DNA from: Escherichia virus TH22
Sequence record: MT446396.1
DNA: 64,000 nt
Direction: 5' to 3' (one strand)
The position numbers and the translations under genes are program-made. Under the pieces are notes generated by a model that saw only the letters and a program-made list of their open reading frames with translations, ran no database searches and had not been told where the DNA came from. Shown piece after piece: positions 38,922 through 46,406 of this stretch; the first letter of the stretch is position 1; every line of letters starts with the position of its first letter.

Positions 38922-39063
38922 TAATTAAATGGGAATAACCTGGACCTCAATCCTGAGGGACTCCCGCCAACCTGTAATAAGGTCGAGCCCGCGGCGGTAA
39001 TGGGTAATACAGGAAGGGATGAATTAATGTGCCAAGGAACGGCCCCACAACTAAGAGACAACT

Positions 39064-39591
39064 ATGAAATTTTTAACTCCAATTTATCTAACCTTAATGC
39101 ACGCCTTCGCTGAACGCGCCATTGAACGCTTAGATTCAGACCAATACACCTGGTATGAACCTACTTCAAGAATGCAAGAGTTTGGTACTCTTAGACTTGA
39201 TGGTGGAAGACAAACAGGTAAAACAAGTGCCATTGCACAGTTCGCCGCAGATTGGGTTTCTAAGGGTAATGATGTGATTGTTATGTCGAGTTCTTCGCAT
39301 CGCTCACGAGAAATCTGTGATATAATAAAGCGGGTTTCTAAAGCACAACCACATCTTAATGTTGAACGACCTGGTTTTGTTGTATATGATACCGTTCGTT
39401 CATTTTTAGACGAAGATAATTTCCATAAGTATCGTGGGTTATCTGTTACTCGATTATTGATTATTATCGAAGAGCCTATTCGCCTTCCAGCGATGGATAA
39501 GTTCTATGAAGCTTACCAGGTAATGCTGAATAAATTTATGTGTCAAGGTTCTAAACCTCTGCCGTTATTCTTTGTGATAGGAATGCAATAA
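39064..39591 (+). CDS. P-loop NTPase-like protein
   Basis: Walker A-like GGRQTGKTS and hydrophobic strand then acidic residue (LLIIIEE). Confidence 0.6.
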   Translation: MKFLTPIYLTLMHAFAERAIERLDSDQYTWYEPTSRMQEFGTLRLDGGRQTGKTSAIAQFAADWVSKGNDVIVMSSSSHRSREICDIIKRVSKAQPHLNVERPGFVVYDTVRSFLDEDNFHKYRGLSVTRLLIIIEEPIRLPAMDKFYEAYQVMLNKFMCQGSKPLPLFFVIGMQ

Positions 39592-39887
39592 TGACTCATG
39601 AAGAGCTTTTTGACCAAATCTATTTTATTCCAAAGGTTAGGTCTGAAGATTTCGTAAAGAATTTTGAAATCTTTAATAAAGCAAATTTCTTTGAGTACGT
39701 GTTTTTGTCTGGACCTTTTATTGGGTCCAGATTTCGTTGCACTGCTCCGAGTATTCGCTTGATGAAGTTGGTTCCTTACTTTACTCTGGAATTTATTTCT
39801 GGACCATGTAGGGGTATTATAACTCGTAGCCTCCTGACGTATGACCAGGATGTGCGATTAATTAGTGACTGGAAAAAATATGTCTAA
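39591..39887 (+). CDS. Hypothetical protein
   Basis: 98 aa; ATG overlaps previous stop. Confidence 0.5.
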   Translation: MTHEELFDQIYFIPKVRSEDFVKNFEIFNKANFFEYVFLSGPFIGSRFRCTAPSIRLMKLVPYFTLEFISGPCRGIITRSLLTYDQDVRLISDWKKYV

Positions 39888-40094
39888 ACTGACGATTGAA
39901 GGCTCTGATGCAGCCTTGAAAAGATTCGTTGAATGGTTTAATGGCCCTGGCGAACAAGACTTTCTGGAAGTCTGGGACGGTGGTCAATGGAACGGTAAAG
40001 AACTGGTTTATCCTAGCACTTATATCTCCGTACAAGGTTGGACGGATGGGCTTCGTTTGGTAGAATATGATATCGCAACCGGCGAGGAAGTGAA

Positions 40095-40098
<4 letters not shown>
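39880..40098 (+). CDS. Hypothetical protein
   Basis: Start at MSKLTIEG (internal Met of track ORF). Confidence 0.45.
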
Positions 40099-40677
<579 letters not shown>

Positions 40678-40678
<1 letters not shown>

Positions 40679-40734
40679 TGTACAAGCAGGTTGAAATGAG
40701 TTATGATTATCCCATCAAACAAAAGGAGATAATC
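40678..40734 (+). promoter_or_regulatory. Early promoter cassette
   Basis: GTGTAC -35, TATGAT -10, leader TATCCCATCAAACAAAAGGAGATAATC. Confidence 0.65.
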
Positions 40735-41193
40735 ATGACTACTATCGATTCAAGTGTTTACATTCGCCGCAATAAACTTCGTCGTATTTTTGAAACGGAG
40801 TTCCTCAAAATTAATAATGCTATCAACAAGGCTTGTAAAGAAGCAGGTCTTGAAGCATTCTTCATTAAGTACAGTCCACACCTGTTGGACCGTGCAATCC
40901 AACGTGAAATTGACGAACAATATGTTTTTGACTTGTTTGGAAAAATCACACCACATGTAAAAGAAATCGTTGAATTCCTGGAGATGAAACCACTCCCGGA
41001 AGTTGAAGCACAAATTGACCCGAGTGTGAACTACCGTCCACTTCGTCTGGAAATCACAGACAAGAACCTATGGTTAGGAATGACAGTTAACCCAGCTCTT
41101 CCTGGGAAGTCTCCAACCATGTGTTGTCGTATGGCGTTTGTTAACTCTAATCGTCTTGAAGGAAAAATTAGCACAAAAGTGATTTATATCTAA
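40735..41193 (+). CDS. regB: Sequence-specific endoribonuclease RegB
   Basis: Start at MTTIDSSVYIRRNKLRR...SPHLLDRAIQREIDE...RPLRLEITDKNLWLG matches T4 RegB as I recall it; 152 aa (T4 153). Confidence 0.8.
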   Translation: MTTIDSSVYIRRNKLRRIFETEFLKINNAINKACKEAGLEAFFIKYSPHLLDRAIQREIDEQYVFDLFGKITPHVKEIVEFLEMKPLPEVEAQIDPSVNYRPLRLEITDKNLWLGMTVNPALPGKSPTMCCRMAFVNSNRLEGKISTKVIYI

Positions 41194-41203
41194 TGGGGAA
41201 TTC

Positions 41204-41746
41204 ATGAAAAAAGTAATCGCCACCTTACTATTGACAGTTAGTATGTCTGCCCATAGCGTAGAGCCTACTTTCAGTAATGAACAGATGGAAAATCTTCAAT
41301 ATGCTTATGCGTTTGGAGAACAGTTCCAGAAAAATGGTAAGTACAAAGAAAATCCGCACCAACATAATGGTTTGGGATATATCATGGCTGGTTTAACCTG
41401 GCAGGAATCATCTGCTGGTGTTAATACAGGATTAAATAAAGATAAGCATCATGCATATGGTATATTCCAAAATTATCTTCCAACCGTGCGCGAGCGCGTA
41501 AAACAGGTTGGGTGGACAATGACAGATAAAGAAATAATCAAGATGATAAGCAAGAGAGAGAACAGTGCACGCTGGGCTTATATTGAGTTTTCATACTGGT
41601 TAAACATTCACAAGGGGGACATAAGAAAAACACTATCATCATATAACGCAGGGTGGAATGTGAAAGCTGGAAATACGTATGCTTCGCAAGTCCTAGAAAA
41701 AGCTAACTACTTAAAATCACGAGGCCTATTAAAAACGGTGGATTAA
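41204..41746 (+). CDS. Secreted protein, possible lytic transglycosylase-like
   Basis: N-terminal signal peptide (MKKVIATLLLTVSMSAHS); GLTWQESS...YGIFQ loosely resembles SLT catalytic region. Confidence 0.5.
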   Translation: MKKVIATLLLTVSMSAHSVEPTFSNEQMENLQYAYAFGEQFQKNGKYKENPHQHNGLGYIMAGLTWQESSAGVNTGLNKDKHHAYGIFQNYLPTVRERVKQVGWTMTDKEIIKMISKRENSARWAYIEFSYWLNIHKGDIRKTLSSYNAGWNVKAGNTYASQVLEKANYLKSRGLLKTVD

Positions 41747-42106
41747 ATGGTAAGAGTCATAACTTTAGCCATAGGGTTAGTATTCAGCACGGGAGGAATA
41801 GCTTCAGTACAGAGCGATGACAATAATAGCATCATAGAATATGCAACGAGGACGGCCAAAGATTATTGCGCATCAAGCAATGTGGATTGTGTAATCCGGT
41901 TCAGTGCCAAGCTCACCGCGGCATATAAAGACGGTCAAAATGATGTTGAACACACTCTTATGAAAAAGAGCACTTTATCCAACAAATATGAAAAGAAACT
42001 ATTTGAAATGGATTGTATTCTGTCGAGTGCCAAATATAAAGCGGCCTGCACCAGTATGGTTGACAGGTTAGTCGATTCCTATAACAGAGGATTGAACTCT
42101 AAATGA
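41747..42106 (+). CDS. Secreted Cys-containing hypothetical protein
   Basis: Signal-peptide-like N-terminus; four Cys. Confidence 0.5.
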   Translation: MVRVITLAIGLVFSTGGIASVQSDDNNSIIEYATRTAKDYCASSNVDCVIRFSAKLTAAYKDGQNDVEHTLMKKSTLSNKYEKKLFEMDCILSSAKYKAACTSMVDRLVDSYNRGLNSK

Positions 42107-42567
42107 TTGTTAACTATATTAAGGGCGATATTGTCGCCCTTTTTCTCGAAGGAAACATCATAGCTCATGGCTGTAACTGCTTCCATACAATGGGTTCAGG
42201 CGTTGCTGGCCAACTGGCAAAGGCTTACCCAAAAATTTTAGAAATGGATAAGACAACAACTGAATACGGTTCCCGAGAAAAACTCGGTGATATGTCTATT
42301 GTTTTTAAACATAAGCCAACTGGATTTGGTATGTGCTATAACCTTTATACCCAGTATGAACCGGGTCCAAATCTGGATTATGGCGCTTTAGTAAATTGTA
42401 TGATAGAATTAAATCTACAAGCAGAAACCCTTTTGTTTAAACCGGTAATTTATATTCCCAGGATTGGCTGTGGTATTGCAGGTGGTGATTGGGATAAGGT
42501 TTCCCGGTTAATTGATATGTTTACTCCTGATATTGATTTGATAGTGGTGGATTATGAGTCAAACTAG
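42103..42567 (+). CDS. Macro-domain (ADP-ribose-binding/processing) protein
   Basis: NIIAHGCNCFHTMGSGVAGQL resembles the macro-domain N...GGGV motif and IPRIGCGIAGGDW the G-I-x-G phosphate-binding motif. Confidence 0.7.
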   Translation: MIVNYIKGDIVALFLEGNIIAHGCNCFHTMGSGVAGQLAKAYPKILEMDKTTTEYGSREKLGDMSIVFKHKPTGFGMCYNLYTQYEPGPNLDYGALVNCMIELNLQAETLLFKPVIYIPRIGCGIAGGDWDKVSRLIDMFTPDIDLIVVDYESN

Positions 42568-42760
42568 TATTCTTAAAAATGCTCACTGTGAAAAGTGTAA
42601 ATGGCCAGTTGTTTTTGCTTTATGCAACGATGAAATGATATGTGATTTTGATTATTGGTGCTATTGTTCTAATAAAGGGTGTGTGAATCATGCAGGCGCC
42701 GGTTTCTATTCCGGGTTTCAACCGTATCCAGACTTTGTAAAACAAGGTGAACCGAAATGA
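42554..42760 (+). CDS. Small Cys-rich (likely Zn-binding) protein
   Basis: 68 aa with CxxC and several further Cys/His. Confidence 0.5.
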   Translation: MSQTSILKNAHCEKCKWPVVFALCNDEMICDFDYWCYCSNKGCVNHAGAGFYSGFQPYPDFVKQGEPK

Positions 42761-42942
42761 GTTTAAGTATTAGTCAGAAAAGTAGATTGTTTGAGCTTAT
42801 CCATGAGCTTTTGGACGAGCATACGGAAGCGAACGCTTTTTATGATGAATACGGCCCGATAGATGCCGAGCATCAGGAAGAATTTGCTAATCGGTTTGAT
42901 GAGAAAGAAAACGAATTAATTGCTTATGTGAATACTCTTTAA
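42757..42942 (+). CDS. Small acidic protein
   Basis: 61 aa; overlaps previous stop. Confidence 0.45.
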   Translation: MSLSISQKSRLFELIHELLDEHTEANAFYDEYGPIDAEHQEEFANRFDEKENELIAYVNTL

Positions 42943-42951
42943 GAAGGTGAT

Positions 42952-43524
42952 ATGGCGAGTTTAATTTATCATTACGCGGCAATGAATGCAGGCAAAACAG
43001 CTTCATTGCTGACTGCAGCTTATTCCTATAAAGAGCGTGGAATGAGTGTGCTTTTGCTAAAACCTGTTATTGATAATCGGGACTCGGAATCTGAAATTAA
43101 ATCACGTATTGGTATTAGCCAGGAAGCAAACCTGGTAACGGCCGACATGAACCTGTTTGAATTCTATAAATGGGCCGAGTCTCAAAAGGATATCCATTGT
43201 GTCCTGGTCGATGAAGCTCAATTTTTGTTACCAGAGCAAATTGACCAGTTAGCACGAGTGGTTGATAATTATAATATCCCCGTTATGTGTTACGGGCTAA
43301 GAACAGATTTTCGGGGTCAGTTATTTCCCGGTTCGGCCAGACTTCTGGCTATTTCGGATAAACTGGTTGAATTAAAGGGCGTCTGCCATTGCGGCCGGAA
43401 AGCAACCATGACCGCTCGAGTAATCGACGGTGCTGCTGTAAAGGTCGGCGAGCAAGTATTGGTCGGTGGGAATGAATCGTACGTATCTTTATGCAGGAAA
43501 CATTGGCTCGAATTGACAAGCTGA
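42952..43524 (+). CDS. tk: Thymidine kinase
   Basis: P-loop YAAMNAGKTASLL, VLVDEAQFL and C-terminal Zn site CHCGRKAT...CRKH match thymidine kinases; 190 aa (T4 Tk 193). Confidence 0.9.
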   Translation: MASLIYHYAAMNAGKTASLLTAAYSYKERGMSVLLLKPVIDNRDSESEIKSRIGISQEANLVTADMNLFEFYKWAESQKDIHCVLVDEAQFLLPEQIDQLARVVDNYNIPVMCYGLRTDFRGQLFPGSARLLAISDKLVELKGVCHCGRKATMTARVIDGAAVKVGEQVLVGGNESYVSLCRKHWLELTS

Positions 43525-43531
43525 GGTCCTT

Positions 43532-43807
43532 ATGATATATAAGATTTGGACGTATATCTCTATTTTTGTTATTGCTGGAATTGCATTTATCCCCACACAA
43601 ACAGATAGCGAGAGATATGAAAGGGAAATTGAAATAGTAGCAAGCACGTACCATTCTGTTAATAAAGAATGCCCGAATAAAAATGGAATAAATTTACAAA
43701 AAGCACATTATATGCTGACTGTTACTAGCCCAGTGCAAAGAATATGGGTTGATAGACATTTTTCTGATTTATTTGCAATATATTGTTTCAAGTTTAAAAG
43801 ATTATAA
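43532..43807 (+). CDS. Small membrane protein
   Basis: 91 aa with N-terminal TM segment. Confidence 0.5.
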   Translation: MIYKIWTYISIFVIAGIAFIPTQTDSERYEREIEIVASTYHSVNKECPNKNGINLQKAHYMLTVTSPVQRIWVDRHFSDLFAIYCFKFKRL

Positions 43808-43810
43808 ATA
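43803..43810 (+). promoter_or_regulatory. Late-promoter-like TATAAATA upstream of rI
   Basis: TATAAATA overlapping the stop of the 43532 gene, ~70 nt upstream of the rI ATG. Confidence 0.45.
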
Positions 43811-43881
43811 CAGTTACTAACTAGTATTCCGCTATGTTAAGGCTGCAAAGCGTAATCATGACCAACAATAAGGAGTCCTTT

Positions 43882-44178
43882 ATGGACCTTATTCGAGGAC
43901 TTTCTCTAAGTCTATTACTAATGGGCTGTTTAGGCCCAAATCTGTCCTCTGCTACAGATGGTAAATTTACCCAGTACGCAGATAGTGCGATGCAAATCTA
44001 TTCGCAATTCAAAGAACCCAGCGTCGAGCAGTCCGAACAATTTTGGGCTTTTATTAAAACCGAATGGAACAATAAGAGTCAATGTGTAAATGAAATCACA
44101 TGTCAAATTGATGGCCGGGCTGCTGCAGTCGAATACGCTAAATTAATGAAGGTAAAATTGGAAGATGAAATTCGATGA
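43882..44178 (+). CDS. rI: Lysis-inhibition regulator RI (antiholin)
   Basis: Start at MDLIRG after AAGGAG RBS; N-terminal signal-anchor; C-terminal ...SVEQSEQFWAFIKTEW...C...C...AVEYAKLMKVKLE parallels T4 RI; 98 aa (T4 97). Confidence 0.6.
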   Translation: MDLIRGLSLSLLLMGCLGPNLSSATDGKFTQYADSAMQIYSQFKEPSVEQSEQFWAFIKTEWNNKSQCVNEITCQIDGRAAAVEYAKLMKVKLEDEIR

Positions 44179-44548
44179 TTTCGTAACAGGTCGTGGGTCT
44201 GAGGTGGATTCATACATTGGGTGGCTATTAGTCTCTTTAGCATATTTTAAGTCCGCCCATCTTGAAACCAAAAGTTACGCCCGCCATAAAGCTTATGATT
44301 TCTACTTCACAGAAATCCAAGGTCCACTCGACCAGTTCAGTGAGCAATGGTTAGGTTACAGCGGGAAACAATACAAAGCTGCATTACCGTCCGCCTCGGA
44401 CTTGCCGAAAGATACAATTTTGTTTTTAGATGAAATGATTAAAAGCTCTGAAAGAGTCTATAAAGTTGTGCCCAAGGCTATTCAATCGACTCTGGACGAT
44501 ATCGTTGGCGTTTTCTTTCAAACCAAGTACCTGTTAACATTAGAGTAA
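44165..44548 (+). CDS. Hypothetical protein
   Basis: 127 aa overlapping rI stop. Confidence 0.5.
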   Translation: MKFDDFVTGRGSEVDSYIGWLLVSLAYFKSAHLETKSYARHKAYDFYFTEIQGPLDQFSEQWLGYSGKQYKAALPSASDLPKDTILFLDEMIKSSERVYKVVPKAIQSTLDDIVGVFFQTKYLLTLE

Positions 44549-45851: not shown

Positions 45852-46406
45852 ATGATTATTGAAAAATCTGGGTTGTTTGGTGACCTGACTGCCGATGTAA
45901 TTGATAATGCAATCGTGCTTAAACAAGAAGATGATACAGTCGTTTTGACCATTCAAGATATTCAGAACCTGTACAAGTTGTCTGTTATTGATGCAGAGCA
46001 GTATATTCGAACTCATAATCGTGTCTTTAAAATTAACGATGAAGTTGTGGCTTGGTTGTATCGAGGTGAAAATGGCTTTAATCTGGAAACCGAATGGGCT
46101 TGTTTATCCATTAAAAACCGTTCAGAATTTTTAGAGAAAATTTTTAAACTGTTCCAAGAAGAGTGTGTACCTGAGCTCGAATGGAAAATCCATGGTTGTG
46201 ATGCTATTATGCATTCAAGCGAAACCTTTGAAGGTGATGAAGAAGGTGATTATAATACTGAATTCAGTGTCCACCAACATCAAGGTCGCGATATGTTATC
46301 TATCATCCAGACCCACGATGGTGAAGCTGAAGTAGTATTCACTAAAGACGAATTAAAAGTTCTGGTAAAATACCTGAACACTGTTATCCCAACTATGAAC
46401 GCATAA
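45852..46406 (+). CDS. Hypothetical protein
   Basis: 184 aa. Confidence 0.55.
   Translation: MIIEKSGLFGDLTADVIDNAIVLKQEDDTVVLTIQDIQNLYKLSVIDAEQYIRTHNRVFKINDEVVAWLYRGENGFNLETEWACLSIKNRSEFLEKIFKLFQEECVPELEWKIHGCDAIMHSSETFEGDEEGDYNTEFSVHQHQGRDMLSIIQTHDGEAEVVFTKDELKVLVKYLNTVIPTMNA

Follow-up and report, generated by a model that had tools for sequence, protein, structure and literature searches.

The interval between the regB and tk genes of Escherichia virus TH22 contains a small open reading frame that resembles a macro domain, and raises the questions of whether this gene is new to the T-even phages and on which ADP-ribosylated substrate its product acts. A previous sequence-only reading of this DNA had proposed a phage macro-domain protein with no counterpart at the same position in T4, which could reverse DarT-type DNA ADP-ribosylation or process NAD-derived immune signals, such as those of Thoeris. 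In this study, we report the gene, its fold and class, its orthology and synteny with the T4 gene tk.4, and an active site in which Gln takes the place of the catalytic Lys of related enzymes. The function of the protein is then discussed in the light of published work on T4 tk.4 and on other macrodomains.

Methods

The window analysed was the whole stretch of 64,000 nucleotides of sequence record MT446396.1, and all positions refer to it. Matches to the Pfam Macro profile (PF01661) were judged against its gathering cut-off of 22 bits. The structure of the protein was predicted with AlphaFold2 using 117 aligned homologues as input, with the T4 row left out, and the model was compared with PDB structures using Foldseek. 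Conservation was assessed in a family set of 118 members, with identity down to about 40%. For the alignment of active sites, the sequences of M. tuberculosis DarG and human TARG1 were those of PDB chains 5m3i and 2lgr (identical), the sequences of T. aquaticus DarG and SCO6735 were taken from PDB alignments, and the sequence of PhiKZ gp104 was the translation from the methods of its paper.

Results and discussion

Location and organisation of the macro-domain gene

The gene order in the window was regB, vs.1 (SLT-like), vs, the macro-domain gene, tk.3, tk.2 (a DUF7438 ORF) and tk, and the macro-domain gene was found in the ORF listing as a reading frame of 154 aa with an ATG start (Table 1). 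Its coordinates and its position between regB and tk were the same as in the sequence-only reading, as were the three motifs quoted there, HGCN (aa 22-25), GSGVAGQ (aa 31-37) and IGCGIAGG (aa 121-128), the first two of which span nt 42166-42213. The TGA stop codon of vs and the ATG of the macro-domain gene overlap as ATGA, and the 3' end of the macro-domain gene overlaps the tk.3 counterpart by 14 nt; such overlaps are the tight packing usual for T-even early genes. Scanning of positions 39000-44500 gave 13 promoters (15.5 expected from shuffled sequence) and 3 terminators (4.4 expected), that is, no excess of either, and therefore nothing is concluded on a dedicated promoter for the macro-domain gene. 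An Acb2-like anti-CBASS gene is located 2 kb upstream, which places the macro-domain gene in an early region together with another anti-defence gene.

Table 1 Features of the macro-domain gene and its surroundings in the window
Feature	Coordinates	Strand	Evidence
regB (endoribonuclease)	40696..41193	+	Pfam REGB_T4, E=2e-71; GenBank annotation
vs (valyl-tRNA synthetase modifier), directly upstream	41747..42106	+	PHROG 1256, E=5e-33; T4 order vs to tk.4
Macro-domain gene, orthologue of T4 tk.4 (adfM)	42103..42567	+	ORF, Pfam, PHROG, AlphaFold2, Foldseek
H22-G23-C24-N25-C26, first active-site strand/loop	42166..42180	+	H22, G23, N25 and C26 invariant in 118 members; alignments
G31-S-G-V-A-G-Q37, Gly-rich loop 1 (GxG lining the ADP-ribose cleft)	42193..42213	+	Conservation
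N80-L-Y82-T83-Q84	42340..42354	+	N80, Y82 and Q84 invariant in 118/118; alignment
P119-R-I-G-C-G-I-A-G-G-D-W130, Gly-rich loop 2 (diphosphate-binding)	42457..42492	+	P119 and W130 invariant
tk.3 counterpart (phage zinc-binding domain), downstream	42554..42760	+	Pfam Phage_zn_bind, E=1.3e-28; T4 order tk.4 to tk.3
tk (thymidine kinase)	42952..43524	+	Pfam TK, E=4.5e-57

Identification of the macro domain

The Pfam Macro profile matched aa 22-136 of the protein with 33.5 bits (E=4.4e-8), above the cut-off, and the match covered positions 2-117 of the 118 in the profile. PHROG 335, which is named 'phosphatase', matched with E=4e-70. Homologues were numerous, with 792 proteins at E<=1e-3 in the protein database and tblastn matches to the gene in 2,768 of the 50,697 phage records searched. 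A sequence search of the PDB retrieved BT1257 of Bacteroides (1e-10), yeast Poa1p (9e-10), the M. tuberculosis DarG macrodomain (5m3i, 1.8e-5) and human TARG1 (3e-3), together with a local match to SCO6735 of Streptomyces coelicolor (5e3b).

The AlphaFold2 model had a mean pLDDT of 95.2 and a pTM of 0.90. When this model was searched against the PDB with Foldseek, TARG1 was ranked first (E=1e-10, TM 0.74-0.82), followed by Poa1p, BT1257, DarG of T. aquaticus and M. tuberculosis, and then coronavirus macrodomains, and the probability was 1.0 for TARG1, Poa1p, BT1257 and DarG. Matches with E<=1e-3 were obtained for 173 PDB chains, the best 50 of which were macrodomains and a few designed hydrolases. 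The ORF at 42103..42567 is a real and confident macro domain, which stands alone and belongs to the ALC1-like/TARG1-like class. The earlier macro-domain call, which had been made from motifs, was thereby confirmed by Pfam, by the model and by Foldseek, and the structure prediction that had been suggested as a check on it gave a macro fold, with helices flanking a mixed beta-sheet. A look-alike that carries the motifs without a true macro fold was also considered, and is ruled out by the Pfam, PHROG, PDB sequence, AlphaFold2 and Foldseek results.

Orthology to T4 tk.4

A 3-kb region was 100% identical to Escherichia phage UPEC01 (MW233709; Gaprivervirus, Tevenvirinae), in the record of which the identical protein (QQG30795.1, 100% tblastn match) is annotated as 'macro domain-cintaining protein'. 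In the T4 RefSeq record, the genes are ordered regB, vs.1, vs, tk.4, tk.3, tk.2, tk.1 and tk, and T4 tk.4 (NP_049723) is annotated as 'phosphatase; contains A1pp phosphatase motif'. The same T4 gene had been recorded as 'ORF 60.5' in GenBank X04567. The window protein aligned with T4 Tk.4 over 152 aa without gaps, with 59% identity and 74% positives (E=4e-70), and was 94% identical to the products of the genes annotated tk.4 in phages ime09 and Shfl2. The two genes occupy the same genomic slot between vs and tk.3, their products are of similar length (155 aa in T4, 154 aa here), and the invariant residues, including Q84, are shared. They differ in the second Gly-rich loop, which is IGAGIGKG in T4 and IGCGIAGG in the window protein, and the divergence is greatest in the C-terminal two thirds.

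The macro-domain gene is the orthologue of T4 tk.4, recently renamed adfM for anti-DarT factor Macrodomain, and is a gene already known and annotated rather than a new one. The sequence-only reading had placed no macro-domain gene at this position in T4 and had filled the T4 interval with the vs.x genes. Both statements were wrong, the regB-tk interval of T4 being made up of vs.1, vs and the tk genes listed above, with vs.3-vs.8 on the far side of regB and outside it. As T4 carries tk.4 at the same position, the argument for novelty was mistaken. In a published survey, macro domains were counted in 41% of myoviruses (PMC9503650).

Two allele classes of tk.4

Comparison of the window with T4 and ime09 across the interval is given in Table 2. 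Phage ime09 is a Tequatrovirus with the gene order of T4 without tk.1; its regB, vs.1, vs and tk products are 98-99% T4-like, and it carries the window-type tk.4 allele.

Table 2 Pairwise protein identity across the regB-tk interval
Protein	T4 vs ime09	Window vs ime09	Window vs T4
RegB	99%	59%	59%
Vs.1	99%	66%	66%
Vs	98%	45%	50%
Tk.4	58%	94%	58%
Tk.3	91%	33%	33%
Tk.2	54%	80%	49%
Tk	99%	72%	72%

A sliding DNA comparison of T4 and ime09 placed the break from about one third into tk.4 to the 3' end of the gene, and revealed a second divergent patch that takes in tk.2 and the absent tk.1. At >=90% identity, 318 phage records carried the window-type allele and 224 the T4-type allele, and a further 159 matched the latter at 80-90%. 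The two allele classes are ordinary T-even mosaicism acting on a small cassette. Alleles of tk.4/adfM have been swapped between Tequatroviruses that are otherwise 98-99% identical, and also across genera.

Conservation of the active site

Eleven residues (H22, G23, N25, C26, G33, A35, N80, Y82, Q84, P119 and W130) were strictly invariant in the 118 family members, which argues for a conserved catalytic site rather than a decayed one, and G31, G122, G124, G127 and G128 were nearly invariant. Both Gly-rich loops were present, as MGSGVAG (aa 30-36) and IGCGIAGG, and G31 and G33 were also invariant in the alignment across DarG, TARG1, SCO6735 and PhiKZ AdfM. N25 aligned with N22 of DarG and N23 of PhiKZ AdfM, and H22 with the corresponding His of TARG1, BT1257 and SCO6735 and with H23 of Poa1p.

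The column of Q84 is that of the catalytic Lys in TARG1 (K84), DarG (K80) and PhiKZ AdfM (K78). Gln is found in this column in T4 Tk.4, BT1257 and SCO6735 as well (Gln85 in SCO6735; 'NMIGQH' in SCO6735 and BT1257). A126 stands at the column of the catalytic Asp125 of TARG1. The sequence-only reading had named an alignment of the catalytic and binding residues as a check: N25 and the Gly-rich loops are in place, and the Lys of DarG and TARG1 and the Asp125 of TARG1 are replaced.

The role of the Gln has been studied in SCO6735, an enzyme that efficiently clears DNA of the thymidine-ADP-ribose made by DarT and that protects E. coli against this toxin (PMC9411070). Replacement of this residue (Q85A and Q85E) abolished the activity, and the mechanism proposed is one in which a water molecule does the chemistry and the Gln positions the distal ribose (PMC9411070). 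Loss of the DarG/TARG1 Lys could also mean that the protein is an inactive ADP-ribose binder. This was set aside as the leading view, since Q84 and ten other residues are invariant, and since a Gln-type protein, SCO6735, is an active thymidine-ADP-ribose hydrolase that depends on that Gln.

Comparison with other macrodomains

SCO6735 (PDB 5E3B) and BT1257 (PDB 2FG1/2AFC) share with the window protein the Gln at the catalytic-Lys column, the H-x-C-N and N...(T/G)Q motifs, and a second loop, PRIGCG(I/L)AGGxW, that is nearly identical to the motif in the window, while overall they are only 25-27% identical to it (BLASTP E=5e-14 for SCO6735). Val25 and Lys34 of SCO6735 correspond to G23 and S32, and the loop with Lys89 (a 'GMKTGSKG' insertion) is absent from the window protein. 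As these three residues are not conserved, the protein is not a close member of the SCO6735 subfamily, and judging by the alignment it would nevertheless work like SCO6735. SCO6735 is basic (pI 9.85), whereas the window protein is acidic (pI 4.9). The acidic pI was rejected as an argument against a DNA substrate, PhiKZ AdfM (pI 5.05) being active on DNA.

The macrodomain of DarG, the antitoxin of DarTG2 (PDB 5M31, 5M3E, 5M3I; Foldseek E~2e-8, TM~0.75), and PhiKZ gp104 (AdfM) agree with the window protein in fold and class. Both have the conserved Asn and, to judge from the T4 orthologue, act against one and the same toxin as the window protein. They differ in having a Lys (K80 and K78, respectively) where the window protein has Gln, and their identity to it is about 20%. 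Unlike DarG, the window protein has no DarT-binding C-terminal domain, and no darT is adjacent to its gene, the neighbours of which are vs and the zinc-binding ORF. On the alignment, one name now covers two subtypes, the T-even AdfM being Gln-type, like SCO6735, and the PhiKZ AdfM being Lys-type, like DarG. TARG1/OARD1 (PDB 4J5R/4J5S), the best Foldseek match, has the same His and the PRIGCG loop, but its catalytic dyad is replaced in the window protein (Lys84 by Q84 and Asp125 by A126).

Poa1p of yeast (PDB 6LFQ-6LFU), an ADP-ribose-1''-phosphate phosphatase, resembles the window protein in the N-terminal 70 residues, with the motif IxHxCNC...G.G, and in fold (TM 0.76-0.80). This likeness gave rise to the old label 'A1pp phosphatase'. 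Of the residues probed in the Poa1p structures, His23 aligns with H22, Ser30 aligns with T29, which is variable (T in 68 of the 118 members), and the region of Phe152 aligns weakly. The likeness raises the alternative that the T-even protein acts on small molecules and not on DNA adducts, and would dephosphorylate ADP-ribose-1''-phosphate, deacetylate O-acetyl-ADP-ribose, or break down some other soluble product or immune signal derived from NAD. Poa1p is among the best matches by both sequence and structure, T4 Tk.4 has long carried the phosphatase label, PHROG 335 is named 'phosphatase', and the His replaced in one of the deposited Poa1p structures (H23A, 6lfs) corresponds to the invariant H22. 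Some distant homologues in Vibrio and Acinetobacter phages also adjoin NAD-salvage genes. The significant alignment with Poa1p is, however, limited to about the first 70 residues. The C-terminal half aligns weakly, and in the C-terminal loop PRIGCGIAGGDW and the N..TQ motif the protein is much closer to SCO6735 and BT1257 than to Poa1p. T-even Tk.4 is not known to take part in Appr-1''-p metabolism, and T4 tRNA repair (the Pnk/Rnl1 pathway) is not known to yield ADP-ribose-1''-phosphate. A comparative-genomics survey has made the case that the substrates of most phage macro domains are small ADP-ribose derivatives and not macromolecular adducts (PMC9503650), which favours a Poa1p-like activity, but the T4 orthologue has only one reported phenotype, and this is specific to DarTG2, a system that ADP-ribosylates DNA. 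On balance, we consider a small-molecule enzyme of this kind unlikely. The Thoeris or NAD-derived signal proposed in the sequence-only reading found no support in this analysis.

Proposed function of the protein

The DarTG2 phenotype comes from a preprint of November 2025, in which tk.4 was the single significant hit when a T4 transposon library (HIDEN-SEQ) was screened on a DarTG2 host (bioRxiv 10.1101/2025.11.20.689424). A clean T4 tk.4 knockout becomes sensitive to DarTG2, and the authors noted the structural similarity of Tk.4 to DarG, renamed the gene adfM, and proposed that Tk.4 enzymatically removes ADP-ribose from DNA (10.1101/2025.11.20.689424). In earlier work, T4 without adfA and adfN kept its DarTG2 resistance, and a further factor was predicted (PMC11825919). 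The earlier suggestion that the protein reverses DarT-type DNA ADP-ribosylation agrees with the knockout phenotype of the T4 orthologue (10.1101/2025.11.20.689424) and is now the prevailing view of that protein. That phages use such a strategy is seen with PhiKZ gp104, an unrelated phage macrodomain: in vitro it frees DNA of the ADP-ribose added by DarT2, and it also rescues cells from this toxin (PMC13309987).

The protein is most likely an early hydrolase, a macrodomain of the Gln type, that clears thymidines in single-stranded phage DNA of the ADP-ribose written by DarT2, an explanation that we regard as probable. The protein would be made early in infection from the regB-vs-tk string of genes. 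The host toxin DarT2 would write ADP-ribose on the N3 of thymidine in TNTC motifs of single-stranded phage DNA, and the macro-domain protein would bind the thymidine-attached ADP-ribose and hydrolyse the base-ribose bond, thereby releasing ADP-ribose. The chemistry would be lysine-free, with Q84 in place of the catalytic Lys, as in SCO6735. The DNA would then be replicable again, and the phage would escape the DarTG2 defence. We infer the same substrate and role for the 59%-identical allele carried in the window.

Several points stand against this explanation. For T4 Tk.4 the evidence consists of genetics published as a preprint, it is the T4 allele alone for which an anti-DarTG2 phenotype is reported, and the allele in the window belongs to the other class, only 59% identical. 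The catalytic Lys of DarG is absent, and the SCO6735 residues that are proposed to position the water (Val25) and DNA (Lys34 and Lys89) are not conserved. The N-terminal HxCNC...G.G resembles Poa1p as well, and the survey argument for small ADP-ribose derivatives as substrates (PMC9503650) also applies here.

Another candidate substrate is ADP-ribosylated protein or RNA in place of DNA, for example the marks made by the phage enzymes Alt, ModA and ModB, or uracil ADP-ribosylation imposed on RNA by the host. T-even phages encode ADP-ribosyltransferases. The products of Alt, ModA and ModB are arginine-linked, and this class of macrodomain is not known to cleave arginine-linked ADP-ribose, which counts against them as substrates. 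SCO6735 and TARG1, the closest relatives that have been characterised, do act on protein ADP-ribosylation and on uracil-ADP-ribosylated RNA (PMC9411070; PMC13036486). However, no phenotype ties tk.4 to Alt, ModA or ModB, and tk.4 came up in the T4 screen with DarTG2 alone, so that a main role in reversing protein or RNA marks appears very improbable.

Protection might also be mainly non-catalytic, the protein binding and blocking DarT2 or sequestering the ADP-ribosylated sites. The catalytically dead mutants SCO6735 Q85A, DarG K80A and TARG1 K84A still inhibit DarT in vitro (PMC9411070), and most of the differences between the two T-even allele classes fall outside the invariant residues of the active site, as might be expected of a toxin-contact surface. 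Such a role sits poorly with the strict invariance of eleven residues of active-site type in 118 homologues, and with a single domain of 154 aa that lacks the C-terminal domain by which DarG binds DarT. We therefore give little weight to protection by binding, and retain removal of ADP-ribose from thymidines as the preferred explanation.

Significance of the active site and the allele classes

As a discovery the gene has little value left, and what remains of interest is the Gln-type active site and the allele dimorphism. The invariant Gln groups the T-even AdfM with SCO6735 in mechanism, apart from DarG and PhiKZ AdfM. It is conceivable, although we would not expect it, that the allele classes arose by adaptation to distinct DarT2 variants or to distinct ADP-ribosylated substrates, with a T-even AdfM mechanism that is lysine-free, unlike that of PhiKZ AdfM and DarG. 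Such adaptation might run, for example, via the toxin-contact surface or an activity on uracil-ADP-ribosylated RNA, and if it has taken place, the allele in the window would have a specificity absent from the T4 allele. The allele dimorphism offers a ready-made natural experiment on the specificity of AdfM against DarT2 variants.

Mosaic exchange of tk.4 and tk.2

Window positions 42103-42942 were compared with the T4 locus (L002) and the ime09 locus (L003). At the protein level, RegB, Vs.1, Vs and Tk of T4 and ime09 share 98-99% identity; Tk.4 and Tk.2 of the same two phages share just 58% and 54%, respectively. The ime09 Tk.4 is 94% identical to the window Tk.4 and its Tk.2 80% identical to that of the window, and the flanking proteins of the window show only 33-72% identity to those of T4 or ime09. 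Judged from these identities, tk.4 and tk.2 of the three phages behave as small mosaic cassettes. Two allele classes of tk.4 were found, both of them common: at >=90% identity, the window-type allele occurs in 318 phage records and the T4-type in 224. The window and ime09 lack a counterpart of T4 tk.1 (62 aa; L002 4347-4535), and in both of these tk directly follows tk.2 (window 42942-42952).

Relationship to other phage macrodomains

The name AdfM has been given to two unrelated phage macrodomains, PhiKZ gp104 (PMC13309987) and T4 Tk.4 (bioRxiv 10.1101/2025.11.20.689424). PhiKZ gp104 is DarG-like with K78 as its catalytic lysine, whereas T4 Tk.4 and the window protein, each approximately 20% identical to it, align a glutamine at this position. 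Distant homologues of the macro protein, with 33-38% identity, were identified in Vibrio phages Athena (MT460517) and Noelle (OQ095919) and in Acinetobacter phage B09_Aci01-1 (NC_048074) (tblastn matches H66, H68 and H72), where they adjoin a gene for ribose-phosphate pyrophosphokinase or nicotinamide phosphoribosyltransferase. These NAD-salvage neighbours could indicate a different role for the three copies, in small-molecule ADPr metabolism.

Annotation of the neighbouring genes

Features of the window near the macro gene and their annotation
Feature	Window position	Strand	Remarks
92-aa ORF	40095-40373	+	T4 vs.4 position; Pfam Acb2/Tad1 hairpin domain PF24729 (E=9e-16)
regB	40678/40696-41193	+	mechanical ORF: GTG start at 40678, 171 aa; GenBank start: 40696, 165 aa
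y05I-like ORF	45852-46406	+	MW233709 11006-11560; GenBank: second 'thymidine kinase'

The Pfam RegB match starts at residue 23 of the 171-aa form of regB. In MW233709, the GenBank record of Escherichia phage UPEC01, the 'thymidine kinase' label of the y05I-like ORF is contradicted by its Pfam matches to a y05I-like putative transcription factor of the T4 MobD.1 family (E=5e-31 and 1e-19). Mis-propagation also seems to account for several further product names in this record, among them 'endoribonuclease' at the positions of rI.1 and rI.-1, and the mobD.x ORFs are similarly named 'molybdopterin-guanine dinucleotide biosynthesis protein'.

The PF24729-matching ORF precedes the macro gene by 2 kb, and its domain match points to a probable role as an anti-CBASS signal sponge. 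With such a probable sponge so placed, the early region would therefore carry more than one anti-defence gene.
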